Assembly (NCBI GenBank): GCA_008632985.1
Contig: QPGO01000108.1
Location: 1-49,246 of the forward strand
DNA length: 49,246 bases
Direction: 5' to 3'
Source: Psammoneis japonica
Taxonomy: Eukaryota
Both the position numbers and the translations under genes were made by a program. The notes below the pieces were generated by a model, which ran no database searches, was not told the origin of the DNA, and saw only the letters and a program-made list of their open reading frames with translations. Below are positions 21,551 to 48,796 of the stretch, in pieces; position 1 is the first letter of the stretch; each line of letters begins with the position of its first letter.

Positions 21551-22291
21551 GGCATTGAAGACCGATTGGCAAGGACAAAAGTGGGCTGGAGAAGTGACGT
21601 GCAGATCGTCAGCAGCATCTGTGGATCCGCGTGGAATTTGCACTGGAACCTTTTGCAGAAAATTTTCTGAGACAATGGAAAATTGTGAGAAATGACAACC
21701 AGTGTGTGAACCAACCACCGCAACACTCGTCATTTTCATCAGAGGCCGCAATGTGGTGTTGTTCACTTTCCTTTGGAAAATTTGGATCATTTGTTTTGAC
21801 AATTGTGCACAAAAATTAGCGACAGTTCATTTGTTTTTTGACGGTCAATTTGCGCTTGTCATTGCCATTTTATGTTGGCAATTGTTGCCGTTTTATTTTG
21901 CTTTTAAGTTGCCAAAGAATTTCAATGAGCCCTTTGTTGTTGAACAATGCTTTTTGTTTTGATCAATTTTTCACACATTTGTGGAATCGTTGACTTTGAC
22001 AGTGCTTTTCACTGGCTTCACCGCAGCCTTGCGTCACCACAGACAATGGCATTTCTCCCTCACCCCAGTCGGCCACGCAATTGCCTGGAGGAACACTGTC
22101 TCATTGTTTCCACCTGCACGCTCCAGTTGTCCAGTCAACAGGCCCCTGCCTGCATTTTGGTGCCTTTTCTGCATGCGCAGTTCTCTGCCCATTTCACAGC
22201 AGCACACCCTCTCCCCAAAATGCTTTTGATGAGAGGGTGTGCTGTTGTGAATCCTGTGCATTCTGCGTGAATCGGCAACTGACTGTTGGCC

Positions 22292-26867: not shown

Positions 26868-27046
26868 ACAATGAACTTAGCTCATTGTCATCGGAGGAGT
26901 CTAGACTCACCGCAAACAATGAACTTGGCTCATTGTCTTCAGAGGATTGTCGATTTGATGCGGAGAAAGAACCAAGTTCATTGGATTCGGAGGAGTCTCG
27001 ACTCACCGCAGACAATGAACTCAGCTCATTGTCTTTGGAGGAGTCT
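26868..27046 (+). repeat. 48-bp (16-codon) tandem repeat, about 3.7 units
   Basis: Units start at 26868, 26916, 26964 and 27012; peptide DNELSSLSSEESRLTA-like. Confidence 0.85.
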
Positions 27047-28314
27047 GTGTTGTCGGAGGACTGCTCATGTCCTGATTCTGACTGCCGCGTTCCAATTGTC
27101 ACGGCAGATTCTGTTGTCCTTCAGCCGCAGGATCAAGAATCCGATGAAGATGACACAAGTGACGCAACCGCGTACGATCGACCCGAGCCACCGGTCCTTT
27201 TACAAGTGCAAGATTTTGACATGGACAAACATGTGAGTGCTGTTTTTGAGTGAGTCTATCAACAGCCGAAGAACTCCTGCAATTGTTTGGTGTCATGTTT
27301 TTCACAAATCTCAGCCCGCAACATGACTCCTCCTGTGCTTTTGTTTCACATTGTCATGTCATCCCCAGACAAGACGGAGGTGCAAATGTCCTGTGGCTTT
27401 GCATGACGAGGCCCATCATGGCCGGAAACCTGACATCAGATGAGATGTGTTCGGACCGTGGCGTGGAGGCTGTCCAATCCACTCAGCAAAGAAGAGATGA
27501 GGCAAGGTGTCAAGTCGTTCAGGATCTCCACACGAACTCAAAGGTTCGTGCATGCACTGTGTCCCTGCAGGATGGCAGCCCCGCTTGTCACTTGAATTGC
27601 AACACACCCGCCAAGAATTTTGCCCAAAGGGTCAAGACGCGGTTTGGAACAGTGATTGATTTTAAGAAAAGTGGCTTCGTTCAGATCTGCATGGACTGCC
27701 GCTGGATGCAAAAAGGGGAGTGGCTGCAGTCGACACTTGGAAATCGCTTCTTTGGCAAAAACCTGAGGGATGTGATGGAAACGTTGTTTCATCCAAAGCT
27801 CCAGAGGTGCCGCGTCATAATCCCGTGCACCATTTGGTCACTGGCCCAAACCATGCGCAATTTGGATGACATTTTGGAGTGCACACTGGTGCGGGCCATG
27901 ACACAGGACATGGCATGTGAAACAGTGACACTCTGCCAGGCTTCCCAGGAGATTGTGGAGGAGTGCCGTGTGGATTGGCTGGGAAAACCATCTGACCAGG
28001 AAGCATCACATTTGGGAGTCACGGAACAGGAAATTCGGGAAACGCTGCCACATGAAGAAGCCAATTCAGTCCCAGAGTTCCTGCGAGAGTGTGGAAATTA
28101 CAACCCGAAGGAACCGTTCCCGTTCCTGTCCTTCGAGAGGAGAATTCCCAATTTTGGGGATGAGTTAAGGAAATGGCCTGGGAGTCATTTGCTGCGCTGG
28201 TTCCCAGTCGGATTTGTGAGCAGATTGTCAAAGCAGGTGAGTGAACGTTGTCTCTGTTGTCCTTGTCGTCCCAACCAAGTTTTCTGCTGCTGTTGTCGGA
28301 TGCTCACATGCTTT

Positions 28315-31300
28315 TCACCTGCTTTTGTGAAACAGCTCTCCCCATGTGTTTCTACGGTCTTGAACTGCCCAAACATGCTTTGTCCTGTCGTGTGTCTCAG
28401 CAATGCCGGGTTGCTCCTTGTGCACCAACAATTTGTCACCAACAGCATCGATGGGCACCAAGAAAAGCTTGGGTGAGTGCACTGTTTGTTCAGCAGAGGA
28501 CAAGTTGTTGTTCTTCACTTGGCCCAATTGCCAGCGACTGACCAGGTCGGTGTGTTGCATTCATTCAACCATGGTGCGCTTGTTGGGCTGGTGCGTGCAA
28601 GGGTGAACGACCGCGTGCAAGTCACTGTCGCTTTCCCTTTGGAAGAAACAGTGAAGTCTTGACGGGAAGCACAGTTCCCCCCCAGTTGTGCCAAAGTTAA
28701 CATTCGCCCAGTCGTGAACCGGTCCTTCGCTGTTGTGGTCTGGGTGTGCGCGGCAAGTGTCTTTCCCATTCTTGTGGCGGAATTCGGTTTTGCAAACAAG
28801 GTTGACGGTGAGGCCACCTCCTGCTCCAATGCATTCCCTCCACTTCTTTTGAAAGAAATGGAGCAGGACCAGGTGAACCTGACATTGTTTTTGCTTTCCG
28901 TGCCAGAGAAAGCTCACTGCATTGTTTGTTGCACTGTGGGTGATGGCAAAGGTGCTGCCACCCAGTGTGTGACTGTCGTTGCCACATGTGACGTCCTTTC
29001 ATCCAACTCTCGATGTGATCCATGGGTTGGCCGACAACGCACGGTGCACCGTCATTTGGTCTTGCACGTGCGACGCAACCTGACCCAGGAAGATGTCAAA
29101 GCTGCGTTGTTGTGCCATGGCAGAGGGCAATTTGAAAAAATCCTCAAGCAAAGATTCTCCAAGACCAGCGTCAAAGTTCATGGCATGACGGAAATGACAC
29201 AGAAAGATTGGAAGGTGAAGAAGCTCGTGAAGTTTTTGCAGCTTCCACCCAGCCCCTTCGTGTCTGGGGGAGCAATGTACGATGCGAGACACCAGCAACC
29301 GAATTTTCTTTGTGATTTTGGTCAGGTCAGTTGTGTCGGTCGGTGGGTCGCCGAGTCGACACCAAGCATGGAAGGCAAGCAGGTCTTCCAGCAACTGGAC
29401 GCATTGCCTGACACTGCAACTAAGGGGCTTTCTCTTTTTTTTCCTTTTCTGTTGATTGTGGCTGTTGCCTTCATCCTCGGACTTGTCCAGTTGTTGTTCC
29501 ACATGATCGTCTTCATCCGTTTTGTACGGATCATCTGTTCTGTCATTGGAGCGATGATCGTTGCCATTGTCGTGCTCTTCCGGCATGTGACAGCGATTGA
29601 TTCGGAACCTGGGTGTCCCACGCCCTGACGGCAATGGAGGATTGTCTTGGTCTTCCTGGAGAAAACAAGATTCGCAGACATCTCTGCCTTCCTTTGTCAG
29701 CAGCAACAAACAAAAAACAAAGGCCATCCCCGCCCAATGATGTGAGTTGAGGCAGGTGAGTGATGTTGCCCCGCCCTTGAAATTGGTTCGTAAGAAAGAA
29801 TTGCACGTGGATCGGTGATTGCCAAACATTTTTTCCACCAATCTGTCGACCTCGCTTCTCACTGAGTTTGTCATGCTGTCAACGAAAACACCAACCTCCC
29901 TTTTCAAAGTTCCATTTTCAAAAAGGTGCATCATGTCGCTTGCCATGGAAAGGGTTGCTCCGAACGGCTGTTCTCCGAAATCTGCACTGAGCAAGCTGTT
30001 GGTGGGCACATTGTGCTGCTTCATGCAATGAAGCTGCTGCAGCCAGTGGCTCCTTTCTTGCTCATCAAGACTGAGATCATTTGCGTGGTTCTGGACTGAC
30101 AAAATGTCGCCAGCCCTGACCAGTTCGCACTCCTTCCAAGGGTCGTCAAGCTCATTGCATCCGGTCATGCAAAACCTGGAACAACATTGGCGACAGTTCT
30201 TGGCACCACACCTGCCCACAAGGCAGTCACCACTCTTCGCATCTCTGTTGATTAGGATCATTGTTGGAATGACATGAAGGAAACGCATCTCATCACCACG
30301 TCGAACGCAGCAGCGAAAGCCGCCATTTTCCATTGTGTCTGGCAGAGGCTGGAGTGTTGTTGCCAACACCTTGTGACAATCCCGGATGCTTTGGCCCTTC
30401 TCCGACTTTCGAGCATTAGATTGCTGTTTGGCGGCGGAGGAGGACATTTTTTCTAGGTCGGGAATGCAACCAAGGACACGCCACTTCGCTCTGTCATGCC
30501 ATTGGTTGCAGGCAACATGAGCCGACGTAACTGTGACGGGTTCTCCGCAGGAAGACGACATGGAGGCTGTCTTCCCAGTCTTGTCAACGTAAATTGTCAA
30601 ACATTCGAGGAACTCTTTAAGAGGATCCGAGACCCTGGCTGCGCATGCACTTCTGTGCCACTCTCCTGCCAAAACACACTTGTCGTGCTTTCCCTTTGAG
30701 GCATGCATTCCGCATGGATCGGCAGTGTCGGCGAGATTGCTGGGGTTGGCCCATGTGTGAGCATCCAGCATGAACGATTCCCACACATCTTTGAAATTCC
30801 ATCGCGGAACTCTTGCTGTTGTCTCACCGCGTTCCCCATTGATGCTTTCTAGGTTGACTGGAATCATCTCACATTCCGGACCTGCAAAAGATTCATGTGG
30901 GTTCTCCATCAGTTTGGTCCGGCAAGGGATTTGCGTTCCAAGATGGAAGGCACTGCCACAGTGTCTTTCGATGAACTCAGCGATCTTGTCACACAGGTGA
31001 AGCGGTGCTCTGCAGTCGTCTAAGAGCTTGCACAGCTCTGCACAAGCACCGTTGAGGTTGCCAAGAGATGGCATGTGCACAAAGGCATCTTCGGCTGGGC
31101 TGCGGCACACCTCACCCAATCGGCTGTCTTCACTCCGCGAATCATCTTCGTCTGAGCTGTTTGATTTGTCAGGATTTGCAACTTCGGAGCCCTCCATTGT
31201 GACATCTGGCAGTGTGTCAAACGAGTCATCTGGTGACAAGCTGGCTTTGGAAGACAAGTCCAGGGACATGTCATGAATTTCCTCGTGATGGGATCGCGGC

Positions 31301-31713
31301 CCAAGAGCAGAAATGTCATCATCAAACGGTGGTGACCATGGTTCATCACTTCTGTCATTTTCGTTGTCAGTGGACCCAAGCCCAATGTTCGCTGCGGACG
31401 CACCTCGTCTGGACCGCCTCAGCCGTGGCTGTGACGCGTCATCTGATGAGGAGGAAATGTCAAGATCAACCGACCCACATCTGCGAGAGAATTTGTTGCT
31501 GACGTTGGAAGATTTAGCCGCAACCCTTGCTGACAACTCTGGCATTGGGCAGTTTGTGACTGCATCGCGACGTGACAAGTTGGACATCTCTTGAGCAAAC
31601 GAAAAACACAGTGGGTCATGATGGAAATGGGTGAGCATCCGTTTGAAGGATCGTTTGCAACGGGGACATGCCGCCACACCACCCCCACCCTGCCAACCAC
31701 CATTTCCTTCCAT
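28315..31713 (-). pseudogene. Plavaka-like (EnSpm/CACTA-related) DNA transposase, hypermutated and broken near the 3' end
   Basis: N-terminal CPRC..H finger; LTIYVDKT, WRVLGCIPDL, RDCHKVL, DAKSGDCLVGRCG, DMMHLFENG and KLQKLHELLH..NFDAGLGE..K motifs; C-terminal CRAHPDHNSEGPVHDWANVNF in ORF 28561..28917, continuing into 28315..28560. Confidence 0.8.
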
Positions 31714-32146
31714 TTGTTGTTGCAGCAGGTTTGTGGGCTGCCCAAACACATGTGTGTTCGAATGGCAGCACCGGTTCAGTTCGTGAAAAGTGAAATGGTT
31801 TGGGCGGCAAGGAAGGAAAACACGACACGAATTGGCACGAAAACATGGGTGCATTGTGTTCTTCCCATCAATGAAAACATTGACAGGTGAGAATGAATCG
31901 AATGTGTTGCAATGATTGACAACTTTGAGCATGAATGACTGGTTGCAAATGTTGTTTTTCTACGGAAAGGAAAAAATAAGTTGTGACGTGACAAGCCGTG
32001 ATGCGTTGCAGCGAGAAGTCCAGGAGGGGTGCACCCACACCTGCTGCAGCACCAGACACAAACGTTGCAATCAACAATGAATGCTGTTGTACAAAATGAC
32101 AGCTTGACGGCACATTGGCCAAACAACTGCTGGAGGATTTGAAAGT

Positions 32147-33487
32147 TTGACAATCATGACGGCAGATGGAAGGCGACAAATCATGGAATCGGAGTGCAAG
32201 GCGGCTTTTGATGAATTGGATCGTTTGACACAAAGTTCGCCACAAGGTGGGATGGTGCATTCTGATGACACGGGTGTGGCTTTGATCGAGTTTGAGAGCG
32301 GTGCACATGCAGTTAACCCGCACCTGCGCCATGATGCGATGGACCTGCAACGCATGATGAATGAGGACGACATCGAAGGGAGGTGGCGGGAACTGTGGAA
32401 GCAGAGGTGCAACCACATGGTTTGGCTGCACGAACATGTGAGTGATTGGAGCACAGAAGCAATTGAGTGCACGCACGCCAGCACAGGCATGATCTCAATT
32501 CACGACAACCTGAGCTGGTTGAATGGCGTCGTCAACCGTGGGGTCAATGCCCGCCATTGCCCGGAGCATTGGGGCTGTGTCGCGACTCACCAAGACAGGC
32601 AAGGAAGGATGTGCTGTGTCTGCAGTGCTCTGCACAATGAAGGAGAGAAAGAGCTGAGGGATGAATTTGCAGCGGGTGCGTGTGATGATGCAAAACTGGT
32701 CATTGACAGGGGAGACATTTCGAGATTGAGACGGAATTTGAGCATCAGCATGCCGACCTGTGGCATGGACAAGACAGGCACTTGCGGACTGTTGGGAGAA
32801 ACATTGGCAAGGGGAGGCACATGCGGACTTGCAATGGACAAGAAGGGAATTGTTTGCGATGCATTAAAACTGGCGAAGTGGCTCCAGCGTGACATCGTGC
32901 AAGACAACCATGAAAGACTTTGGTTCTGTGAGCAAATGGAGTTCTTCAGGTCATCTCCATGGACAGTCAATGAATGGACACTGGACATTGTCTGGAAGGA
33001 GGATGGTGAGTGGGAGAAATTTCAAAGCAGGAGAAAGGAAAAGCGTTGGGTGGAGAGACGTCGTCACATTGAAGTTAACAAATTCGTGAGAATGGTCGGA
33101 GCGGAGACGAGGGCTTTCACCCACATGACTGACTGTTCCGACATCGGGCGATGCATCAAGTTGAGAGTTACGAAGTTAGAGGGTGATGATGAATTGGACT
33201 GGAGAAAACGATTTGGCGCCAAAAAGGATGGATGTGCTTGGGCCCCAACAGCAAACCGGAATGACGTCAAAGCAGGTGAGGGGTTTGTTCATTGCAGCAA
33301 AAACAGTGAAAACAACTTTTGTGGGTGCACGTTTCACAATGATGTTTTGAACAAAACACTTTTGCAAGCAATTTGCACTGTGGAAGTGGATTTCGAAATT
33401 GCAGCAAAAGAGAGGTTTGAACTGGAATTCGCTAAAAGATTTGGCCAATTCTCAGTTATGTTGCATTTGAGAAAAAGGAATCATTGA
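32147..33487 (+). pseudogene. hypermutated ORF of unknown function, divergent from the transposase
   Basis: 446-aa protein-like ORF with no Tyr found; no family recognised. Confidence 0.5.
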
Positions 33488-33536
33488 TGGCAACTGCGAG
33501 ATTTTCAGCATTAAAGAGAGGTTTGAAAATTTTCCA

Positions 33537-34813
33537 ATGGCAAAAATAACTGGGACACAAGGCATGGAGCCACCCACAATTGGCGACAATGGCAAGGAAG
33601 AAGAAGAAAGGAACTGTGGGGGTGGCTGGAGATCAACCAACAAGCCCAAGGCTGGCCGCAGCGTTGGTGCGGGTGGGAGCCACTGGGGATCACCAGTCTG
33701 TGAAGAGAGAGGCAGAAGAGGTGGCGCGGAAGGAACTTTTCCCAAAGGCAAAATTCCTTGTCAAGGCGGACATGGCAAGCAGTGGCAAAGTGTCGCGGCT
33801 CATCAGGAAAAAGACAGCCGGAGGAAATTGCAGCAAGCGAGACTGGGCAGGAGCGTGGGAAGACTGGGCAAAGAAGTGCGTCATGTGTGCAATCAACGCG
33901 AAAAGGAGCACGGTCACTCAGGCGATCAAGAACAATGCAACGGCTGGCAAGTGTTTTGTGGTGCACGGCATGTTGAGTGTGGCTGCACTTGACACAACTG
34001 CACCTTCATTTGTTGAAGTCATGTTGACAGAGAGTGAAGCAGAGGAGACACACAGTCAGAAGCTGGCAGCAAAGGGTGGAGGTGGGAAGAAGAGCAAGAA
34101 GAGGAAGAAGAATGATCGCACGGAAGAGGAAGAGCCGTTCCTGGTGACTTGGGGGGAGGAGACTGTGACAACGATTGTGGAGGACAAGCGCAAGAACAAG
34201 GAAGCATGTGCTTGGTTCCACAAAAACATCCTGAAATTCACAAAGAGCACCGCCACATGGAGAAGGAAGGCAGAGTCGGGTGAGACAAAGGCAGCCGGTC
34301 TGGCTGCAGCGAGCGACGAGGCTCTGGCGCTGTTGACACTGGAAAACTGCTGGAAGAGTTGGGAGCACAAGGCACGTCATGACAAGACTGTTGCAGCAGG
34401 GGGGGGGGTTGGACGAAGAAGATGAGGAAGAGTCGGAACCAACACCCAAGTGCACGGACCCGTCAAGGCAACGAGACTCGTGGAAAGATGCAGGGATCAA
34501 GCGATTCAACGAACTGCTTGCGGCAGCGAAGAAAGACAGGTTGAGTGAGGAGGGCATGCAGTTCGACACATGGTGCAGCGAAGGCAAGAAAAGGAAGAGT
34601 GACGAAAGAGGCAAGGGACCAAAAAGAAAGAAAAAGCAGGTGGAGGAGGCAAGAACACAGGCAACGATGGAGCTTTCAAGTGACGACAAGGAGAAGGAGG
34701 AAGAGGCAACGGACGAGAACAGAGGAGACAAGGACAGCGATGAAGGGGAGGAGGACAGTGATGCGGAAAGCGATGCGAATGTAGATGCAGATGGTGAGCG
34801 AGCTGCGGCATGA
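33537..34813 (+). pseudogene. transposon accessory ORF (SDEAxALLxLENxW...WxxxGxxRFNxL type) with frameshifts
   Basis: ELFPKAKF..W..INAKRSTVTQAIK, then SDEALALLTLENCW and SWKDAGIKRFNELL, with an acidic tail. Paralog at 6891-7870. Confidence 0.65.
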
Positions 34814-36489
34814 AAAGGCAGCGGAGGCTTTTGTTAGTGTGACAATGGAAAGAGGACAAGCAATGCAGCAGGTTTCAATGTCAACAGTTGCGAGGCTTGA
34901 CAAAGCGTCAAAGGGATCATTGTTTTGTGATCTAACCTTTCATTTGACAACCAGTGCATGCAGTGGAACCAGTGCATGCAATGGAAGGTTCTCTTAACCA
35001 ACGCAACGCAATGATCAGCATTGAATTGTCATTGACCAAAACGTTGCGAACATTGCTTTCAAAAGGTAAAAAGTGACGGAATTCTGACAGTTGAGGGAGG
35101 GGTCCCACAGGCAAAGGAGGGGTCCCATGGTGAAAAATGCAATGCTGTGATGTGCAATGAAAAATCATGTTCTACACAACTCACTCAATGTGAAACTGTT
35201 GCATTCATGCCCACAATGGCATTGAAAATTGCCCACAAGAAGGGTGGTCACGATCACTGCATTTCACGATCTGATGTTCCACTGATGAACTTTGCTCATC
35301 ATGCTGCAATGAGGATGCACCCTTGGCAAACGTGGACAGAATGGGCTTGTTGGAGCCAAATCAACACCATCTGAGAAGGGCAACATCAGCACAAGAAGGT
35401 GCATGGAAACCTGTGTAGAAGCTGAGGGCATGCAGCTGACATTGAAAAAGCAACATGGCTGCACATGGAAGCAGCTGCTTTCCACCTCATGACAAAAAAA
35501 ACACCGCTGTTGAAACCATCATGTTTTGCTCAGTCTGCAGGTGCCATTTTTCTTTTGTTTGCTGCTGGCTGTGGCAGCTGCGGGCTCACGGAGATTTTGG
35601 CAACTTTCAAATGCAAAGTCATTGCACCCTCTTCTTGGGCCATTTTGACCTCCTTCTGTGAAAAGCACTCAACACAAAATGACACCATTGAATCCTCTGC
35701 ACATCCAAACTGGCCCACGTTGACCACACTTCTGTTTCATGCAGGTCCATTTTGGTGACCTCATGCACATTGACTTTGGGCTGATCATCCATCAAGACCT
35801 GCAAATTTTTTTTTATGTGCAACAGAGGTGTTTTTGCATGAAATGTGGCACAACTCACCATTTTTTCCTTTGCAGCGCATCTCTCATGTCTGCTTCACAT
35901 TGTCGACCAGTCTGCACCACTTTCACAACAGCAAAGAAGAAGTCAAAAAAAAAACACCATGGCAATTGGCACAAAAAAACACATCTCAACAGCGTGCATT
36001 GATTGTTCCTCTTTCTGGTGGTTCTGTGAGAGTCACTTCACCAAAGGACAAAATCACACCCAGCAACAAGGTGTCAAATTTTTGAGTCATTTCCAACATG
36101 TGGTTTGCCATGGAGGGAATTTTTTGGACATTGTGTTCAAGTCAACACTGTTCAAGACAATGAGTGCATTTCAAGGCCTTGGCAATTTGATCCTTGGCAA
36201 TCAAGGCATGTTGTGCATGCTTGGAGTTGGTCAGATGGGGGCTTGCAGAGGGCTTCTTTGATGGTGACTGGCTGCCCCCAGCTGTGTTCTTGGTCTGAAA
36301 GGTCCATTGCGGCAATTGTCAACATGCAGACAGTTTTTGTTTGCAGTTTGTTGTTGCACTGTAGACTGACAATGGTGTTTTGTGTTTGTGCAGTGTCGCT
36401 GTGTGCACATCAGTGCAATGAGCACAATGCAATGATTGTCACTTTGAAGATCAAGGAATGACACAAGCAGTTGTGAGTCTGGATGCTCC

Positions 36490-36633
36490 ATGGCAACAAA
36501 CTGAGAAAGAAGAGCCACACCCATCACAGTTGGAGGGGGTGTTGGGTGGAGGCAGGCCACAGTGGACACAGAGGGAGACCCTGAAGGCATGCTTCTCATG
36601 ATGACAAATCTCCCAGAATGACAACTCAACCAC
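36490..36633 (-). mobile_element. short relic of a CRE-like non-LTR element (zinc-knuckle region)
   Basis: FRVSLCVHCGLPPPNTPSNCDGCGSSFSV resembles the FRDxLxxRYGxxPxxLPxxCDGCGxxFSxxH pattern. Confidence 0.6.
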
Positions 36634-38118
36634 ATCATGTCAATTCAATTGTCTTGGGTGTCACTCCTGATTTGATTGTCTCAGTGATGATGCTCGCAGT
36701 TTAGACAGCCAACGTGCTCCCAAATGCCCATGGGGGTTGAGACAAACAAAACCATGCTCCGGCTGATGGGGCACCAACAAATGCAGTGAAACAATTGGGC
36801 AAGTGTGCACAACAGCCAGCCAGCTGGCCAGCTGGCTGCTGCAGTGATCCACTGAGGTCCAGTCACAATCACAGTGCAAAAAATGGAAGATGTCCTTGTC
36901 ATTGACACCAAACTCAAACTCCCAATTCTTGTTCTTCTCACAATGCTTGATCATCTCAAACACTTCCATTGCCCACCAAAGCCATGCCTTGACAGGAGTT
37001 GTCACCATGGGAACCTTTGCAAGGACCTTTGACACAGCAAGTGGCTCCTCGCCAGATGCCGGTGAGCCAGTGACAACATTCTGCAGGGCACGAAATGCCG
37101 GGACCATGTTCTTCTTGTTGAACAATTTTGTCTTGTTGCCCTCCATCATGGCCTTTGCCATTTTGAACTTGTCTGGCAAGGAATGGGTGCCCACTTTTTC
37201 GTGGCAGCCCACCTTCACCAAGGCAGTTTGGCTGCACTTGCAGGACAGGCTGTGTGAATGACAGTCCCGGCTGACCGTGTCATGTTTGTTGCTGACATTC
37301 ACCTTGACATCAGTGTAAAGAGAACAGCCAAAGTCTCCAACCCAAAGTTCCTTGAGAATGTTGGAAGGCAACTCACACTTTGTGACAAGACCTTGAAGTC
37401 AACAAAAGTTGGCATCTGTCTTCAATTTGGGAGCATCACTGCATGTGAGGAGCGTCTTGGCTTTGCTGTCATTGCAGAGCTTTTGTGGAAGTTTGCCCAG
37501 CTAAAGATGGCAGAGAACACAAAAGAAGATGCGGCCATCTCAGTTGGGGATGACAAGCAGGGGTTGTTCTCCACTTGTTGTTTTCTGGTGTTTGGTCCAT
37601 CAATCGGCCAGAAGAGTGTGAAAAAAGCTGTGCTCTTCCTTGTCGCCATCATGCAAGGTCAAGAGAATGCTTTCATGTGTGGTGTGCGAACAGCCATTCA
37701 CCATCAAGTGGACAAGAGGATCTGGCTCATTGGCGTGCATGCCAGCAGATTTGGTGCAATTGTTTGTTGGCATGCCCTGTGCATGTTTGCTTGTTTTCAT
37801 TTTATTTTTTCAGTGGAACAGAACCACAAGCAAAGGAAAGTTGAGTGCGCTGGCAATGGCGGCATGGAGAGAGGAGAGAGAGTTTCCATGATGTCGTCAA
37901 TCCACGATCCACTGTCGATGAAGGGGGGGGGGCATGTCACAATCCCGCATGATCACAGCATGAACTGGCGGTGCACTGTGCTGCCCTCCAAGTCCAATTT
38001 TCAACACAAATGATTCATCACTGAACAACAGCCACACTGTCAGAAGGGTTTCACACAGCCTCAAAGTTGCCATTGCCTGTCATTGCGTTCCTCATTTGTG
38101 CACGTTGTTTCACGTTGA

Positions 38119-39968
38119 TTGTTGGAGGGAGAAAATGTGGTGGCTGTGTTTTTTTGCAGTGTGCAGCCTGGCGCAAACTCTCTGCTCCACCCAGCTGCCA
38201 GAGCAGAGAGCAACAAATGCAAAAATGAAAATTTCCTCTTCAAAGCGATCGAACATGCTTTGTGCATGAAAAGTGACAGGTTTTCAGCAATGTTGACGAC
38301 AACCTTGAGGCAAAAAGCCATCACCCTCAATGTGTCAAAAGTTTTGTTGTTGCAAACAGATTTCATGTTTGCACTTGCACTCCACAACAATTCAACATGG
38401 CAGAGTTTGCCAATGAGGTTTCCATGCAACTGCAATCAGACTTCCTTCACAGAAGAGAGGGTGACAGCGACGACAACGGCAACCAAATTCTTCCCCCAAA
38501 CGGAGCTGTGTTGGAGCTGGGGGGTGGCTTCACAGTGTGTTGCAACCCAAGAAAAATGTGGCCGGCCTCATTGTTGAGGAGTTGATGCCGGAGAGAATCA
38601 TCGTCCAAGAGAGGAGATGGAAATGGCCTTTGAAGAACTTCTCCACAATGGGTCCAATGCTCTCACCATGTTTTCTGGAAGCCCTGGTCCCTGGCATTGG
38701 AAAATCCACACTCTTGTTCCTTGTTGCGCTCTGCAGGGTTGTCACCAAGAACGACAAAGTTGTCCACCTCCATTGGGCGGATGACACAGACAAACTTGTC
38801 AGCATTTTTGCAATGGAGCACAAAGAGAACCATGTTTTTATCTGCTTTTCTAGAGAGGTGTCCCAGACACTCGATGCAGCAGTGAAATGTGAAAGCCTTC
38901 GTCATTGTTTTGATCATGGAGTCTCTTGGACGGATCCCTCTGTCATGGGTGTTGCGGATGGTCCAAAAAGCCCCGAGTTTTCAAGATTTTCCAAACTCAC
39001 TCATGGATGTGCATCCGGCAGTGATGCAAGGATTGAGCATCACATGGTTTGGAAAACATTCAATGCAGCCATGGGTGGCTGGAAGAAGGTGGATCTGGAA
39101 ACCGCCATTGTGGCCCAATTGAAGCTTGACCCGACAGAGATGAATCCAGAGTCAACCCAATTTTTTGACCAAGAAAAGTTTGATGCTGTGCATTTTGTGC
39201 ATGGAGGGCGCATTTGTGGTTTCCCACAATCCTGCCAATCACAAGACGGCGTCGATGTGACATTCGCCGACCATGTTGTTGCTCCCATTTCCAAGCAGCA
39301 GGCTTCACTTTTGCTCTCTCACTCCAATTGCCGATCAACGACGAGCATGTGGACTCTCTGCAAACTGTCTTTTGGATGGCAAATGGATCTGCGGACAATG
39401 TTGTGTTGCACGTGACTTGGGCTGCATGTTGCAAAAGCTGAGGATGAACATCAGTGAGGAAGAGCTTTTCTCCAGCTGCCAAAAGGCAGAGGCAGAGGGC
39501 AACAAGGGGGCTCAGTCAAACCATTTTAAAGAAATGCTGCACTGGTGTTTTTGCCTGGAGGGCACATCCCCATCAATTGCTCAATCAGTTCACACTGAAG
39601 GAAGTGGTGCTGAAGGTGTCGGCAAGCTTGTGCAGAAGAATCAGCACTGGATTCCATCAGCTCCCAATTTTGCAAACATTGACTCTGCTGTGGCTGGCAG
39701 TGATGAGAAGGTTTGGTGCTGCCAACTCACTGTTTCTAGAAAACATTCCCACAAGAAGTGGCATTTACAAAACACCTTTCTCAACCACACTTCATTCTTG
39801 GATGACATGAACGAGGTTGTCATTGTGTTTGTTGTCCCACAGGGGACAGAAATTGCTCTGCCAGACACTGGCGGCAAGGCTGAAACTGACATTTTCCAAG
39901 TCAACTGCTCTGCACTCGATGCAGTTCTTTCTTCCGTTGGACTCCTGGCAGCTGGAGTGGCAGTGTGA
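38119..39968 (+). pseudogene. Crinkler/RHS-like P-loop NTPase + restriction-endonuclease-fold gene relic
   Basis: Walker A (G)SPGIGKSTLLFL is broken by a 7-bp duplication at ~38682-38695; Walker-B-like VADG follows; C-terminal WIPSAPNFANIDSAV..CQLTVSRKH..VIVFVVP. Confidence 0.7.
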
Positions 39969-42336
39969 TCTGGTCTTTGACAGTTGACAGCACAGTCCAT
40001 TGCTCAAAATCACAACACTGGAGTTCATCCAGCACTGCAGCATGAGACCATGCACCCCAACAAACAAGTCTGCTTGTTTGCTTTGTTAAATTGTCAGCTC
40101 TGTTGCCTTGTTTTAACCATGAATGCCAGATGTGTTTTGCCACCTGACCCTGGCTGCAGAGCAAGTTTGCAACTGCAAGCAAGCATTTGATTTCATGATT
40201 GACGATTGACTGCAAGTTCAGGTTCATTTGCTTGACTTTCTCACAGTCAAGAGAAACAGTCTTCAAACAGAGGATGTTGAAAGGGCACTCTGTGAGAAGT
40301 GCCGCAGTGCCATGGGGTGGGGTGCAAGAAGTGGCACTGTGGGATGTCACACAATGATGCACATGAAGCCAACCCTGACACATGTGCAACCAAGCCCTTC
40401 AACATCCTCATCACAACAACAAGTCTGCTGGGCTCACAGCAAATGCAATGGCATGTGCAGTGCTGGAGCAGCATCCTTTCTGTTTTCAATGCCCGCGGAA
40501 GCATCAGAACAAAAAATGAACCTTCACGTCAATGATGCGTGCACAACAAATGCAGCGCTTGCAGCAGGCAAGAAGTCAATGCAATGACTGGCCAGCCTCA
40601 ATCCATCTGACTCAGATGTGCTGCCAGACTGTTTTACAAGCAAAGCATGCTGAATCAGCTGCCGACCATTCCACTGCATTCTTGAGGTGAGATGAAAGTC
40701 TGTTCTGTGTGGGGCATCAGTTGGGCCATGAAGTCACTTCTTTTGTTGCAACTTTTGCAACATGTTGGTGCTGGGCAGGTCAAAAATCAAAAACCTCATT
40801 GACACTGCCAGTGTTGAGCACAATCATGTTGCCTCCTCCGGATTGGCCCAAGTCCATTGTCTTTGTCCATCAGCACATCCGCAGCCCTTTGCTGCGCCAC
40901 TTTGCTTTTGCTTCAGGGGCATCAGGTTTCTCTCCCTCCATTGTCATTTGTCACACAATGGGTGGCTGTCATCCATTTCGGCTGGAGGCAAGAGGCAAAG
41001 ATGCAACAATGCAAAAGAGCAAGCCACACACAAGACACGGAACAATTGAGAGGCCACAGCACAAGTTCTTGAGTGTGGCTGGAACAACAACAGAGCAAAA
41101 ACACAAGCAACCACCCCGTGTGTGCCAAGAATTTGAATGGATCTCCACAGCAGCCACCAAAGTTGTCTTGTTTCTTGAGCCCAGCACTTTTGAGCATCAT
41201 CTGCAGCTCGCCCTTCTTCCACAGCGTGCAAGCATCCGTGGCGCCACCGACAAAAAGAGCAAAGAGAGAGCAGCAAGTTTTCAGCCTTCCTCCTGGCAGG
41301 AGCTTTGATGTCGGGATTCCTGTCAGGCAAAGCACTGTTGCTGACAGACCAGCGCTGTGCAGCATGTGTGCGCTCTCTTCAGGAGCTCTCACTTGACAGA
41401 AGGGCGCCAAAGTTGAAAATTGACCGGAGAGAGCTTGTGCTGCTGGCTGGGGGTTCAGGGTGCTGTTTTTGTCCTGCAAACTCTCTTTTTGCCATTTTGT
41501 CCCCAGATCTCATGCACAAAGGGCTGATTTTCTTTTGTCTGTGAAAGCTTGCTCTGGAGCTGCGCCGCCATCTTGCTTCACAAGCAGCAAAAGCTGGGCG
41601 GGCCTCGCTTCTTGAGCACACCAACTTGCCAAAGCAAGCAACAAGTTCTTGCTTGTCACATTGTTTCATCTGTGTCATCCCATGGCTTCATCGGAGAGAT
41701 TCGGTTGGATTCATGCGTCATTCTACTGCCGGTAGAACGCAATGTGATGGCTGTGCGGCCTAAAAATTCACTGCACTGTACGGTGTTTGATGATGATTCG
41801 GGGGACCAAAAGAAGATTCATTGGATTAGTCGGAGTTGCCATATGAAAGATTCGTTGTAGAAATCTACGGGAAAAACGTACGACGAATCTGCGGAGGTGA
41901 GTGAGCCAGTCACGACGAAATTTCAGATCGGCGGCGACCACTTTTTTCTTTTTTTCTCTGCGTTTGTAAAAGGGCACTGTGTGTAAGTCGCGAGACACTT
42001 TGGCCGTTGTTTGTCGTTCGATGATTTTTGCGTGAAAAAGCGTGTATATGAGCCTTGTATATGTCTTGCTTGTGTGAAATGCATTTGTTGGAGAGCTGGA
42101 GCCTGGAGCGTACTTTTGTTCATCATCGCGTCTCAACGCTCCTCTTCCAGCATTTGAGAGAGGTGAGCGAAGATTCACGAGATTCAGCCGCACGGGCTTG
42201 CGAGTACGAGATTCGCCGTAAGATTCTACGCGTCCGATACGTGTCTCCCGGCGACACTCCCACTTTTTCTGACACCTCATAATGCTATTGCTTTCGACGT
42301 AACACAGAGCGGCTCTTCGGGACAAAGACAGGTATC

Positions 42337-44122
42337 ATGTTACGACTTAAGAAGCTCAAAAAGAAGATTGCGACTGAGGAGGGCCCCAGCTGTCCACATA
42401 GCACAATCTCGGAAGCATCTGGTGACAATTTTACCCAAATGGTGATTGAGAACGTACCTCGCACCATTTCAGTGGCGAGCAGCGTCACTCACCCTGGTTC
42501 GACTGGATCCATCTCCTCTGACGGACTTCATGTTATGGGGCCCAAATATAGCGACGACGAGACTAGTGCCTCTGGGGGAGTTTACATTCTCAACAGTTTG
42601 CGTAAGGGAGATTCGCCGAGCGAAACTACCATGTCGGTTGGTTCCAATCAAAGTCTAGATTCACCTCACGAATGTTCTGTATCGGGCGAAGCAAGCACCG
42701 CAATGGCTGACTCGAATGCGAAGAATGAAACGGCGGAGACACGTAAGCGCAAGTCCGATGTTCTGAACAAGGTCCCAGATGAGGACAAATCCGCCGAGGA
42801 CTCTCTTCCGCAGAAGAAGCCTTGCGTGAGCATTGCTCCGGATGTGCGTTTTCTCGCGAGCTCTGACGATACCAATCACCTTAATCCTCTCCACACCTTC
42901 ATCCGCAAGCAGATCGAGGTCTTTACGGCTTCTCCTGAAGACATGGCACAGCCTGCACCCGGACGAAAGACTCCCGTGAAACTGAACCAAGTCGGGCTCC
43001 GCTGCACTCACTGCAAGCATCTATCGCCTCGGGATCGTGTCAAGCGCGCTGTCTGTTACCCTACTAGCCTGGGTCGCGTGTATCACTCTGTAAGTGATAT
43101 GAAGTTTGATCACTTTAGCAACTGCCGTGGACTCTCGCCGGAGTTGCGCGCCGAGTTTGAATCTCTCAAGCTTCAGTCCAAGACGGCCGGAGGAAAAAAC
43201 TCCGGTTCGTCGACTTCCAAGTACTATCAAGCCGCAGCAATGAGGATGGGAATGGTGGATGGTCATGGTGGTATTTACATGGGCCACGTGGGTGAGACTC
43301 AGCAACCAGTGAGACCGAGTGTCCCTTCCATTGCTCCTCCTCGCAAAGTGCCTGCTACGAAGAAGACCAGAGAGCTTGCGAGGAGAGTGTCAAGTGACGA
43401 CGTTCGACCTTCGCCTCCACGTCAAGTTGTGGCTGCGGCTACCTCATACCGACAGCTTCCTCCCGTGTTTTCAATCCCACCTTTGATCTACCCCATGACG
43501 ACCTCCAACCACTCTAGTTCACCACGCTCTGGAAGAGTGCTTCTTTCATCCCCGTTGGACGAGCAATTCCTCAACCCACTTCATTGCTTTGTTCGACGCA
43601 ATGTCGAAGTCTTTGCTGCAACCCCGGAAGACATTGCAGCTCCCTCTCCTGGCCGGAAAACAAGGGTTGCCGTTGGACAAATCGGTCTCCGTTGCATTCA
43701 CTGCGCAAAACTACCTGCAAAAGAACGTGTCAAGCGCACCGTGTGCTACCCGCCGTCAGTCGGAGGTATCTACCACTCTGTATCTAATATGAAGTTTGAT
43801 CATTTCGGCAAATGCAGGGGCTTGCCAGAAGCAGCTCGGGCCGAATTTGAGTCACTCAGGGAATCTTGCAGTAGTCGCCGCGGCGGCGGCTCAAACAACT
43901 CGTTTAATGACCAACTCGACTGCCCAGTACTACCACGACTCTGCGATTAGACTTGGCTTGATTGACAAGGGGGCAGGGATTCGTTTCAGGGATCAGCGAA
44001 TTTTGTCAGAAGCTCCCAAGTCTTTGGCGCGACCTCCAGCAGACGGGATCCATGCTCTCATGTTGGCGGCTACAAATCCGCGCGTTCGTGCCGACTTTGA
44101 CAGACAACATGTCAAGGTTTAA
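42337..44122 (+). CDS. protein with two tandem Cys/His domains (diatom putative transcription-factor type); apparent frameshift near 43880-43905
   Basis: Two copies of LNPLHxFxRxxxEVFxA..PGRKT.V...QxGLRCxHC..RVKRxVCYP..YHSVSxMKFDHFxxCRGL. The end of repeat 2 (NSTAQYYHDSAIRLGLID, cf. SSTSKYYQAAAMRMGMVD) lies in the +1 frame. Confidence 0.8.
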
Positions 44123-44479
44123 ATTTTGTTGTCTATCTGCCCGGATTGTGGATAGACGTCGTTTTTGATTTTTAACATGTTATAGACCAACTCCATGCAA
44201 TGCACCTACTAGACTAGGGCAAATACTGTAACGTGATTCGAATGGGCAAGTAGAGTGAACTACTTAAACTCAATTTATCTAGTGAAGAAGATGAGTCCAT
44301 GGATCAGCAAGGATCGTGCGTAACTAGAAGTAGGAACGTAACGTTCTTGGTTTCTGAAAGCGCGGTGAGGCAAGTCGGACTGAACCGATTCCATGACGAG
44401 GGCGCAAATAGACCTAAATGGGAGTTGATGTTCTGTCGACTTAACGGCACTTTGACCCTCTTTTTGATGTGCATCAGGC

Positions 44480-44760
44480 CCCCAGTGACGTGATTAATTG
44501 AATAGAGAAATAGCAAGACGTCGCCAGTTGCATGACGTTGGGTCAAATAAGGAAAACCAACACGCGTGGTGCTCCGCAGAAAAGAAAACTAGGTTCTCAG
44601 CTCCTTCCATAAATGCTGATCAACGCGGTGGCGGAAAAGCGCGGTCCGCATACGTGTGAGCACAATCTACGTGGTCACAAGTACTGATGATCACGTACGT
44701 ATGCAATCTTTCCCATTTCGATTTCTACGTAGGATCCAGTACAACTTCTACGTGATCATT
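44480..44760. promoter_or_regulatory. cluster of ACGT-core (TGACGT/CTACGT) motifs upstream of the plastid-protein gene
   Basis: TGACGTGA, TGACGTT, TACGTG, TCTACGTGG, CACGTACGT, TCTACGTAG and TCTACGTGA within ~280 bp; bZIP-type cores. Function is inferred only. Confidence 0.35.
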
Positions 44761-44829
44761 GACACCGAAGATCAAAATTCGATTTGACATCTTCTGCTCT
44801 CACATTTTTCGTTCGTCGTCAAATCAAAC

Positions 44830-45339
44830 ATGGTGAGTGAATTTGGAAACGAAGAGCATCCTTCTTTTTGAATGAGAGGCATTTCCTCGCAGGCGCGTAG
44901 CAACGGGTGTTCACAGAGTGTTACTTACTCTCCTTTTCTTCATTTTCTTTTTCAGTACAAGATCACCGCCCTTCTCGCCCTTGTTGCCTCGGCTTCGGCC
45001 TTTGCCCCCACCTCTTTCGGAGTTCGCCCTTCCACCAAGGTTTTCTTCGAATACGGAAAGTACGACGACCAGGTGTGGGACATGGCAGCCAAGGATGATG
45101 TCTACGCCAGCTGGGACCCCAACCAGCCCCGTACCACCCAGAACTTCAACCCCTACGAGACATTCGGCGGAAACTCCCCCGACGCCAGTGGAATCTACCC
45201 CGGTGAGGCTTTCTACAAGGATCCCATCCGTGGTGATGCCAGTTGGGACATCATGGTCAAGGAACGTGAAGCTGCCGAGGCCCGTGCTGCCAACCCCAAG
45301 CCCGGTGATGTTCCTGGAGCCCCTGGATGCAAGAACTAA
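44830..45339 (+). CDS. small plastid-targeted protein of unknown function; exons 44830-44832 and 44956-45339
   Basis: ATG|GTGAGT intron ..TTTTCAG|TAC gives MYKITALLALVASASAFAP (signal peptide with the ASAFAP cleavage motif); strong C-ending codon bias. Confidence 0.88.
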
Positions 45340-45611
45340 GTTCTTTCATTCTCATTCGAACATGCGCACGAAAATTGACATAGATCCATTCTAACTCATA
45401 AATCACACGCATTGCATCAGACAATTCGCACGTCTTTCATGAATTTAGTAGGTAATTGCGTTTATTTCATAGAGCATGCCGATAGCCGATTTCTATTGAC
45501 TTTCGAGAAACAATTCAGCGCACCAATCGCAAATTCGATAGCGCACTTCGATACCGCAGAATTTTTTTCATCTCAAGCGCACTTACTATAAACTGTGGCC
45601 GAACGAGTTTA

Positions 45612-46685
45612 TCAGTGGGTCAATCTCGGCCATCCATTTGCATCACGCTTTTCCAAAGTGATTGTCAAGTCCCCGTCTTTTGATTCCGTGCCTCTGTCCA
45701 ACGTCCACGTTGAACCGTCAGTATCAATGTGGTCGAAAAGTTTCATACCTACCATCTCCGTTTTTCGAACCTCGACAGAAATTGATTTAGAAAGAAACTT
45801 GACTTTGACATCCTTGGTAGTAACATCGCCAGGGACAGGAATGACCACCTCGATTTCGTCTTCCGTTTGTGTCCACGAATACCCGTCCTCCACCTTTGCC
45901 ACCCCGTCGTCTCCCGCAAGAGCTGGCTGGACTTCGTTCCGACCAGTGATTTGATTCATGGAAGTTTGATACTCCAAATTCTGCATGGTTGCCTTCTGAA
46001 GCCACTCTGCGTCTGCGGCAGTATCTTTTCCAAGTTCAAACGAAACATTTCTCAAAACAGGTTTGGTCTACAGGAAATTCGAACAGTTCGTTAGTTCAAT
46101 CCACTTTTCGAAGTAAGAACATTTTTGGATCCAAGTAGGCTTTCATTCTCCAGCGTATGAACATTCACGACGTACCTTTATCCTTCCAATGTAAACATCG
46201 CCGTAAAATTGCGGCGGAGGGTTGAATCCGGCACGGGCAGCGTAGTCACTAGCGCGAGAATTGAGCGGAAGGCGTTTGAGCATCCCCACCTCATCCAAAT
46301 AAATATTGATTGCCGTAAAGTCGTTTGAGGGTGTCGCATGAACCAGTGAAAAGGATTCCACACTGCCCTCGGATGCAACCTGAGCCAACGCCGCTTCCGA
46401 GACGGATGCTTCCACATTCCCCAGTTGCTGAGTAGCGTGTTCTTTGAACAATTTCAAATCGACAGTTTTCGAACCACCACCAAACGCTGGTTTCAAGTAA
46501 GTCAACAACAAATCCCCGTCGGCGCTTGATTTTTCCAAGGGAATCGCAAACGACTTTTCTTCGAGCGGTCTCGAAGAATCATGTGGGATCTCCACAAACG
46601 TAATTCTCTCCTGAGGCAAATTTTCGGCTTCTCGAAGCGCTTCTGCCACCTGGGCTCTACGTCTTTCTTCTGGAGTTTCAATCAT
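45612..46685 (-). CDS. NudC-like CS (p23) domain protein; exons 46685-46176 and 46067-45612
   Basis: GTACGT..ACTAAC..TGTAG intron joins the exons in frame; C-terminal YSWTQTEDEIEV..DVKVKF..LFDHIDTDGSTWTLD..LTITLEK..W CS domain. Confidence 0.85.
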
Positions 46686-47043
46686 GACTCCCTAGAGAAG
46701 AAGAAGAAGAAAAATGCCACGCATATTGTACATCACCCAGTGTCTGTCAGCTACCGGTACACAGATTGAAGATGGTCTCGGTTTCGCGCTTCAATCCAAA
46801 CACAACTTACCCGTTCTCGCAGCCATGCGAGCCGCTGCTCCGGTGTCATTCCATCGTCGTCCTTTTCCTCCGACATGATCAATGATGCGGTTCTTGTAAA
46901 TGGCGTGTGTCAACGTTTCACGGTGTAAGAATGAAATGCCATGGGTCGTTGAACAAGTAGCAAGGTGAATGTGATCGAAGGTGGGCGAAACCGAAAGAGG
47001 TCGTAGACTTACAAAGAGCATGTAGATTTCTACGTCGGTTTTG

Positions 47044-47520
47044 GCGGCTATCGCCGCTTTTCTCGTTTATCCTCGGCGGCGATCTTCAAGCTAGTGTAAA
47101 TCTAAAGGCCAGTGATCCAAGGTAGGAGTGGAGTGGGCTTTACTAGCACACGAACTTTCCTTCTCCAAACAAAAAACCCAGGCTGGACGGCAAGGGCCAG
47201 AGGGCGGGAGAGGTGGGAGCGTTTTAATCTATCTACGGGCCGGCTTGCTGTTGTTGTTTCCAAAGGAATGAGAGGAAACAAAGCAGCCGGTGAGAGAGGC
47301 GGCCAGGAAGTTCGGGAACTTTCAAATGGAATGGGGAATCTCGCCTTGCGGATTGCTCGAGGACAGCGGCTATCGCCGCTTTTCTCGTTTATCCTCGGCT
47401 GCGATCTTCAAGCTAGTGTAAATCTAAAGGCCAGTGATCCAAGGTAGGAGTGGAGTGGGCTTTGCTAGCACACGAACTTTCCTTCTCCAAACAAAAAACC
47501 CAGGCTGGACGGCAAGGGCC
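47044..47520. repeat. split direct repeats: 155-bp copies at 47044-47198 and 47366-47520 flanking a 167-bp segment
   Basis: The copies differ at 2 positions; matches the B1-A2-B2 3' end of Ngaro elements. Confidence 0.92.
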
Positions 47521-47620: not shown

Positions 47621-48796
47621 TCAAGGCATGGCAGGAGCAATGGGAACGTCGGCATTCGGATGGAGGACGAAGTGGCCACCGGCGAGCACACGTTGGGCGA
47701 AATTGCGCATGACAGGCTCCGCTTGTAGATGGAGGCATCGGAGCATTTCGTCGGACCGCCATCGGCCCAAGAGACGAATTGTGTCCATGTCGACTTGGGC
47801 ACACAGCAATCCCATGGCACCCGCGGCTCGAAGGCAGCGCGCGGAGACATCAGAGAGAAGGAATCCGAGATTCTGTGGACCAAGTGCAGTGATGGCAGCA
47901 CGGAGGATGGACGTGATGTCAGTGGGACTGACTCGGTGCCAGCGTCCGTTGCAGAAGTGGACTGACAAAGGTGTGTCAGGCAAAGCGCCAAAGGTGCGCA
48001 AGTGAAGTGTTCGGCGTACGGCAGCTTTGACGGGGCAGAGTTGTGGGTGGCCGGAGAGGCCAAGGCCGACAACTTCGCCACGAACTCCATTCTTTTGCGC
48101 AGTGAAGGTGAGCGTGGTGAAGGTTGCAGCGGCGAGCTGCGCGTCTGGGGCATGGAAGACATCCAAATGGATGCCACCAGCGGAGAGGCGTGCGTCGGCG
48201 AGCCGAAAAGGAGTGGTCTCCGAAGGGGTGGCTGTGCATTCACCAGGACGCAAGAGAAAGAAAAAGGCAAGGGCGATCATGTCAGCGACAGCATGGGTGC
48301 CGGGGTGCTGACTGGCAGCAGCAGCAGCCAAGATCCAATGGAGCACGGCCACGGGTCAGGTTTTGCACGGTCGGTGGGCGGATCCTGCTTCTTGCAGTGA
48401 CGGATCTGGCGGGCAAGATGGAAATCCAAGCCGCCTTGGAGGGTGAGCCGTGGGTCCGGGGCCCCCATTGCAGCGAACGTTTGGCCAACCGACCGCAGGG
48501 CATCTTCAGCGGTGCGTGCACGGACGGGATTGCCACGTGGGGCGAGGACTCCGACTCGACATCGGTGGAGGAAGACTTGGAGGAATGAAGATGGGGTCTT
48601 CGACTTCGACAAGGAGTGGATCGACGGCCAGTGTGTGGCAGAAATTGGCCCAGAGGTTCCAATGGGTGTCGGCGGCGGAGGCTCGTGAAGGGGCAACTGT
48701 GAGGGCAACGGCTCTCTGCGCAGCACCGAGGTCACGAAGGAAATCAGCTTTCGTGGCGGGGTCCACAAGCGCCAAGGTTTGGTCTGCGGGTGACAA
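47621..48796 (-). pseudogene. tyrosine recombinase, frameshifted, catalytic Tyr replaced by Cys
   Basis: FFFLLRPGEC, FTAQKNG, LCPVKA, SARCLRAAGA and IRLLGRWRSDEMLRCLH; N-terminal parts in ORFs 48277..49167 (VRARTAEDALRSVGQ..G.PDPR) and 48506..48796. Confidence 0.88.

Follow-up and report, generated by a model that had tools for sequence, protein, structure and literature searches.

Loss of TpA from foreign DNA has been described in the rhizarian alga Bigelowiella natans, where 230 of the 231 mutations that arose de novo in two regions of integrated viral DNA were A:T to G:C changes, all at TpA (Mettrop et al., bioRxiv 10.64898/2026.01.13.699255). The TpA rate in some of the lines exceeds the background about 1000-fold, ADAT2 is put forward as a candidate cause, and reverse transcriptase (RT) and DDE domains are enriched among the TpA-poor coding sequences (bioRxiv 10.64898/2026.01.13.699255). 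The process reported here resembles repeat-induced point mutation (RIP) of ascomycete fungi in being directed at mobile DNA, specific for one dinucleotide and productive of irreversible transitions on both strands. RIP acts in a CpA context and depends on RID. The two differ in direction: RIP makes TpA from CpA or TpG and creates stop codons, whereas the process in our sequence destroys TpA and with it tyrosine codons. Ngaro retrotransposons (order DIRS) are described as having split direct repeats in the order A1-ORFs-B1A2B2 and gag-like, RT/RNase H and tyrosine recombinase (YR) frames (PMC8547959, PMC6681497). In YRs the tyrosine bonds DNA covalently and the tetrad is essential (PMC3212892).

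The locus reported here shares with the integrated NCLDV/virophage DNA of B. natans the heritable conversion of TpA to TpG or CpA on both strands of foreign or mobile DNA, against the usual AT bias. It differs in its host, which is likely a diatom (stramenopile), and in its targets, which are multi-copy retrotransposons. The TA observed/expected ratio (o/e) of 0.02-0.26 in the 38 copies scored is near-saturating, compared with 0.45 for the NCLDV region in the preprint, where rates were measured de novo; our states are read from existing copies. We also report a preference for certain flanking bases and identify a catalytic residue that falls victim to the process; the words 'diatom', 'tyrosine', 'trinucleotide' and 'CpG' are absent from the preprint text available to us.

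The window, meaning the whole stretch of DNA analysed, comprises 49,246 nucleotides (G000:C109:1-49246, G000 being its own genome of 91 Mb). The features referred to below are as follows.

41800..47043, no strand: host gene block adjoining the element, used as an unmutated control (TA o/e 0.52, CG 1.07)
47044..47198, minus strand: split repeat B2, which terminates the element on its 3' side, in a repeat region that retains TA (o/e 0.68)
47218..47369, minus strand: split repeat A2, identical to A1 at 152/152 positions; A1 lies outside the window at G000:C109:53266-53417
47366..47520, minus strand: split repeat B1, identical to B2 at 153/155 positions, with TG at 47463-47464 where B2 has TA (47141-47142)
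47621..48355, minus strand: C-terminal 244 codons of the YR, from the alignment of relatives and the Cre-like fold of P0001; remaining catalytic positions intact
47735..47737, minus strand: TGC (Cys) where the YR is predicted to have its nucleophilic Tyr (GRWRS position; P0001 Y347, matching Cre Y324 by motif order); Tyr in 118/120 homologues and 80/80 loci
47957..47959, minus strand: third Tyr column, here CAC (His), so that this copy also bears the outcome of a change on the other strand; Tyr in 94/120 homologues
48236..48238, minus strand: TGC (Cys) in place of the LRPGEY tyrosine, which is conserved but non-catalytic; Tyr in 119/120 homologues
48248-48250 (Arg), 48092-48094 (Lys), 47837-47839 (Arg), 47828-47830 (Arg) and 47759-47761 (Trp), minus strand: intact catalytic positions
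48356..48775, minus strand: N-terminal portion of the YR; two indels private to this copy (+1 near 48587, -1 near 48357) enclose a shifted frame, and the match shows two TGA codons
48277..49246, minus strand: last part (3') of the gag/RT/RNase H frame, with RNase H-like motifs; it overlaps the YR gene and continues past the window

The element spans C109:47044-53417. Like Ngaro elements, it is about 6.4 kb long, with split direct repeats (A1 ... B1 A2 B2) and gag-like, RT/RNase H and YR frames, the RT/RNase H frame overlapping the YR frame downstream of it; most of the other copies examined have the same A1-ORFs-B1A2B2 layout. It is unlike Ngaro in that the window family has Arg-X-X-Arg in place of His-X-X-Arg (P0001 residues 313-316; 115/120 homologues) and an RT motif that is mostly FVDD. 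The RT motifs were taken from other copies and from relatives, the pol region of the window copy being only partly readable. The layout is that of a Ngaro-type retrotransposon and is also found in PAT and VIPER. Four sister copies are 96-97% identical to the window copy and each lies in other flanks. One sister copy (L034, on C47) is about 2.9 kb long, with an internal deletion and both ends intact, and is likely a non-autonomous derivative. In the adjoining gene block, the gene at 44956-45336 has look-alikes in diatoms (Bacillariophyta, score 0.97), which makes a diatom host likely. A contig from sequencing run X2 skips 108 bases of the same block (46068-46175) with the CT..AC ends of a minus-strand intron, through which the frames 46143-46691 and 45612-46067 (CS domain) become a single host gene. 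Run X2 yielded no contig over the YR frame, which has no bearing on expression of the latter.

The homologue search yielded 955 proteins out of 7995 scored, and conservation by column was counted on the best 120 of these 955. An AlphaFold model of the intact relative P0001 has a mean pLDDT of 84.7, with values below 50 at residues 338-348. This model matches Cre in Foldseek (E = 1.3e-6) and in VIA (Z 16.4, rmsd 4.4, 277 aligned residues), where integrases and Xer proteins come next. The modelled fold of this relative supports identification of the window gene product as a YR with the lambda-integrase/Cre fold, in keeping with the preliminary description of this DNA, which had named a DIRS/Ngaro-type recombinase. 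Matches to PF00589 (E 0.12-0.31 in 3/9 sequences) and to phrog_1 (E 0.003-0.006 in 2/5 sequences) were weak. No Pfam match was found for the YR or pol frames among eight window ORFs, none for profile A1 against PDB sequences and none for P0003 against plasmids; hhalign and hmmsearch gave no usable alignment with Cre (profile alignment probability 0.5%).

The motifs of the YR family follow the same order as those of Cre, with LLR176, QK228 and R313-x-x-R316 corresponding to LLR173, TK201 and H289-x-x-R292, respectively. We take the catalytic residues of Cre to be R173, K201, H289, R292 and Y324, matched as letters in the Cre sequence. The Arg-to-Trp spacing is 23 residues in both the family and Cre, and the Trp-to-Tyr spacing is eight residues here and nine in Cre. 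The predicted catalytic Arg, Lys, Arg and Trp are present and near-invariant in the family, the His position being the one occupied by Arg as noted above. Given this shared motif order and conservation, 47735-47737 is the predicted nucleophile and the LRPGEY tyrosine, which sits four residues past the catalytic Arg where Cre has Ile, is structural. Thus, of the two sites flagged in the preliminary description, only the former is predicted to be the nucleophile, and the catalytic residue of LRPGE is predicted to be its Arg. With Cys (TGC) in place of the C-terminal nucleophilic tyrosine, the window copy is a defective member of the tyrosine recombinase family; judging from YR chemistry, a cysteine at this position would abolish strand cleavage.

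Both LRPGECT and GRWRSDEMLRCLH lie inside the minus-strand frame 47621-48355, which is open for 244 codons between stops (243 counted from 48352) and contains no tyrosine, as had been read from it earlier. The region 47621..48352 has two TA dinucleotides and 31 AT, where 15.5 TA would be expected at the median o/e of the relatives (0.555; Poisson p = 2.5e-5). The frame is the 3' two thirds of a YR gene of about 380 codons. Upstream of it the gene is broken by a 1 bp insertion near 48587 and a 1 bp deletion near 48357, both private to the window copy and absent from the four sister copies; contigs from run X1, being majority paths across several copies, give no confirmation of these two indels. 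If the indels are real, the YR gene of the window copy is also frameshifted, and the tyrosine loss is therefore not its sole lesion. The earlier statement that the recombinase is disabled by the tyrosine change holds as far as loss of the predicted nucleophile is concerned, but not as an account of a single lesion.

The direction of the change is given by the relatives. In the metagenome loci (the best 80 of 526) both flagged sites are TAY in 80/80, with TA o/e values of 0.31-0.77, and cysteine at these sites is thus not a property of intact relatives. Since the relatives have Tyr where the G000 copies have His or Cys, the polarity is TA loss (TAY to TGY or CAY), as first proposed, and is not the C-to-T change creating TpA that characterizes RIP. 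Retention was counted in the 38 G000 copies, among 111 matched segments, whose loci had been fetched; a near-duplicate pair is included, and three open-frame copies that are more distant (42% identity) lie outside this count. For columns at least 85% conserved among the relatives and codons with at least 50% local identity, the conserved tyrosines are kept in eight of 74 scored cells, the others being His (34) or Cys (32). In the same copies Phe is kept in 438/451 cells, Trp in 99/101, Lys in 70/72 and Arg in 556/690. No other conserved residue in the G000 YR copies is destroyed nearly as often as tyrosine.

The catalytic codon specifies His in 22, Cys in ten and Tyr in five of the 37 G000 copies scored at this position, so that the nucleophile is lost in 32/37. 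At the LRPGEY codon, also scored in 37 copies, the counts are 22 Cys, 12 His and three Tyr. The four sister copies have CAC, CAC, TGC and TGC at the catalytic codon, and three of them retain TAC at the third column (47957-47959). Three conserved Tyr columns of RT/RNase H keep 9/58 (25 copies). The RT catalytic motif itself is FVDD in 25/31 relatives, so the RT catalytic core holds no tyrosine target. The broader expectation that Tyr-dependent transposon enzymes would be inactivated is therefore borne out for the residue, but does not extend to this mostly Tyr-free motif, and the loss of activity would follow from the predicted role of the residue.

Among the 38 copies, 15 lack the catalytic tyrosine while retaining the other five catalytic positions, and two have all six. 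In the remaining 21 another catalytic position is lost or unscored, mostly through Arg codons changed as CpG decay predicts, and the loss of tyrosine need not be what stopped these copies. A full-length stop-free frame is present in 16 copies, of which 13 lack the tyrosine, six lack it alone among the six positions and one is complete. We infer that functional loss through the tyrosine holds at the level of the family; in the window copy it is one of two lesions.

In the subfamily L008, L010, L011, L012, L020, L022, L026, L027 and L184 the catalytic codon is CAC in 8/9. Spread in trans from a His-bearing founder was considered when the first eight members were all CAC (p ~0.003, post hoc) and was set aside as a general account when the ninth proved to be TGC; that part of this nine-copy subfamily came from a His founder copied in trans is possible but unproven. 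A strict pattern search for an unmutated copy gave one match, a short distant remnant amid TA-normal DNA, and missed known Tyr-bearing copies. Outside G000, a JGI/IMG metagenome protein (P0002) has His or Cys at five of six Tyr columns, the catalytic one included, no decay of conserved Arg and at most 73% identity to any scored G000 segment (71% over its full length). Its sequence possibly represents a second lineage with TA erasure and little CpG decay.

The mutation process was characterized over whole elements in 20 of 26 fetched 10 kb loci, five singletons and one near-duplicate being excluded. These 20 copies belong to five subfamilies and have 635 interior TA-type sites, at which 958 cells are TG, 914 CA and 512 TA (symmetry p = 0.32); 1872/2384 TA cells (~79%) are mutated. 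Ancestral states were inferred from state sets, so that sites that are TG or CA in every copy go unseen in these counts, and related copies are not independent. Every copy bears both outcomes, with 34 TG and 22 CA in the window copy. Its subfamily of five copies has 74 variable YR columns, of which 73 are transitions and 69 fall within pyrimidine-purine steps. The A:T to G:C change is confined to the TpA context. A likelihood context fit, which corrects for unseen sites, gives rates by the base following A of 2.9x for T, 2.3x for C and 1.2x for G, each relative to A in that place; A at -2 approximately doubles the rate, whereas T at -3 and A at +2 are protective. The mutation targets prefer TAY, and the one surviving Tyr column (22/36, context TTY-TAC-A) fits the measured flanking-base protection.

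In the window and the fetched loci the TA loss is confined to mobile DNA: TA o/e is 0.10 in the element interior and 0.52 in the adjacent genes. In the block 27001-41500 it is 0.06. This block is one of several large TA-depleted blocks (with 1-1000, 6001-7000, 9001-13000 and 19001-24000; o/e often <0.15), some also strongly CG-depleted, that alternate with TA-normal gene blocks. The element ends keep 197 TA compared with 138 expected by the model, mostly in the subfamily of the window copy, in which the split repeats and ends keep 97 compared with 55 expected. The 150 bp paired repeats are the least mutated part of the element. A simple trigger by homology is not favoured by this observation, which may instead reflect how long the repeats are or their location at the edge. 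At the split repeats run X1 is several-fold deeper than in the interior, suggesting extra copies of the ends.

Two loci, L043 (C294) and L045 (C9), are the same 10 kb locus present twice at 99.3% identity. They agree at 132/132 doubly mutated sites, so the mutated states are fixed and inherited. Since the split they have acquired 41 CG-type and six TA-type differences within the element and few in the flanks, indicating that both processes continued after the duplication. Pairwise sharing of derived states (257 same, 151 different, above the 52% expected by the model) was discarded as a measure, as pairs reuse sites and new TA inflates the count. The descriptive part of this account is near certain. 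It comprises the substitutions and the direction they take, their symmetry between strands, their specificity for TpA and their heritability, together with the restriction to mobile DNA within the window and the preference for T or C after TA.

The reading that we favour, as probable if some way from secure, is that nearly all TpA was converted to TpG or CpA after insertion, the likely agent being an adenine deaminase of the host that can attack either strand, and that the resulting change of the predicted catalytic Tyr to Cys would disable the recombinase. Copies would arrive with normal TA and be struck one at a time as chromosomal DNA. Five subfamilies reached several copies each, so any defence would have to act after insertion. 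The link with CpG decay and the partly spared ends suggest that the process acts in silenced, CpG-methylated chromatin. There, a TadA/ADAT-type DNA adenine deaminase would convert A to inosine, to be fixed as G upon replication, a top-strand event giving TG and a bottom-strand event CA. As TAY is both the preferred target and the form of every tyrosine codon, enzymes with a tyrosine nucleophile would be the first to go, and this loss, in contrast to methylation, would be irreversible.

The candidates in G000 include one TadA-like gene (C38:7368), one ADAT2-like gene (C26:119851) and two genes with an A_deamin domain (C40:112674 and C79:344558), all of which may be ordinary tRNA editors; further genes with the deaminase fold are present, and none of the candidates is singled out. 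One frame (L172:313-1785, minus strand, G000:C79 near 88500) joins a deaminase-fold domain to a putative 2-oxoglutarate/Fe(II) oxygenase domain, recognized by eye. We know of no natural TadA/ADAT enzyme tied to such a TpA process. The A-to-G chemistry and TA(C) preference are like those of TadA/ADAT and the engineered ABE8e: TadA-8e favours a TAC motif, in a passage that concerns off-target edits of RNA (PMC9126838).

The main rival to deamination as a defence is that the scars are post-mortem, TpA erosion being a by-product of silent chromatin in elements already silenced or broken, with little effect on mobility. One conceivable cause is a modified A or T that is unstable at TpA, and the rival is compatible with deaminase chemistry. 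TA loss follows CpG decay, the two hazards being correlated over 20 copies of five related subfamilies (Spearman 0.83), and this agrees with such a by-product, as do the two private indels of the window copy and the spread of five subfamilies prior to mutation. Several C5-methyltransferase matches are present in G000, and DNMT5 alone silences young elements in Phaeodactylum tricornutum (PMC9998398). Against this, TA is lost 5-20 times faster than CpG (median 7), relatively fastest in the youngest subfamily, and the six open-frame copies described above lack the tyrosine alone among the catalytic positions. Activity in only some B. natans lines also suggests regulation. On this evidence we regard a purely post-mortem origin as unlikely, while giving it serious weight.

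A second alternative is error-prone gap filling by a polymerase eta- or iota-like enzyme during T:G mismatch repair in methylated repeats, with G inserted opposite T. This would account for the strand symmetry and the CpG-decay link, and WA is a hot spot of polymerase eta. Yet AA>AG (127/10330, 1.2%) is barely above GA>GG (95/12014, 0.8%), far from the proportion of TA cells mutated. Transversions within a subfamily amount to 0-0.18% (leaving out one copy with an insertion, L014), and there is no enrichment of small indels at TA sites, 4/37 lying near TA compared with a background of 15%. The strict TpA specificity, the few transversions and the absence of an indel excess argue against an error-prone polymerase, and we consider this explanation improbable.

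A-to-I editing of the retroelement RNA, or editing of one-strand cDNA, before integration has very little to recommend it. ADAR favours U before the edited A, as stated in the B. natans preprint (bioRxiv 10.64898/2026.01.13.699255), and the two A_deamin-domain genes could supply such an activity. But TG and CA are near-equal per copy, which is impossible from one template strand; the paired repeats B1 and B2 differ as TG and TA; and whole window blocks of 14 kb (27001-41500) are affected. Since both strands of a single copy are changed, the target was double-stranded DNA, in the simplest case already integrated, and RNA editing is excluded. Least credible of all is a sequencing or assembly artefact in which a modified base at TpA is read randomly as TG or CA, for although TG and CA states look random between copies and no library type is recorded for the runs, the loci on C294 and C9 agree as described above and contigs of public run X1, which may be the assembly's own sample, show TG or CA, not TA, at the same sites.

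Post-insertion deamination by a host enzyme can be extended to the proposal that diatoms and chlorarachniophytes share a dedicated, chromatin-guided, TAY-preferring DNA adenine deaminase, in effect a naturally occurring adenine base editor and a defence in the manner of a reverse RIP that would kill Tyr-nucleophile integrases first. We offer this tentatively, as a conjecture that may well prove wrong; the scars in P0002 hint at a wider spread of such a process. Apart from the B. natans preprint, we found no report of a TpA signature in a diatom or a transposon in a literature search that mostly left subscription journals aside. Within that literature the published process is limited to viral DNA integrated in a single rhizarian alga and comes with neither an enzyme nor a demonstrated consequence. 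The process itself has thus been described once before; new here are the likely diatom host, the retrotransposon targets, the saturation and the TAY bias.

The window locus is one of many examples in its genome and not the cleanest, being also frameshifted. A likely diatom host extends the TpA process to another eukaryotic lineage, in a group with working gene knock-outs. The YR provides a concrete consequence, in the loss of its catalytic tyrosine from most copies. The target motif, TAY, which is protected next to A-tracts, offers a means of testing candidate enzymes. If true, a natural A-to-G editor of chromosomal DNA would be relevant both to the biology of genome defence and to base editing.
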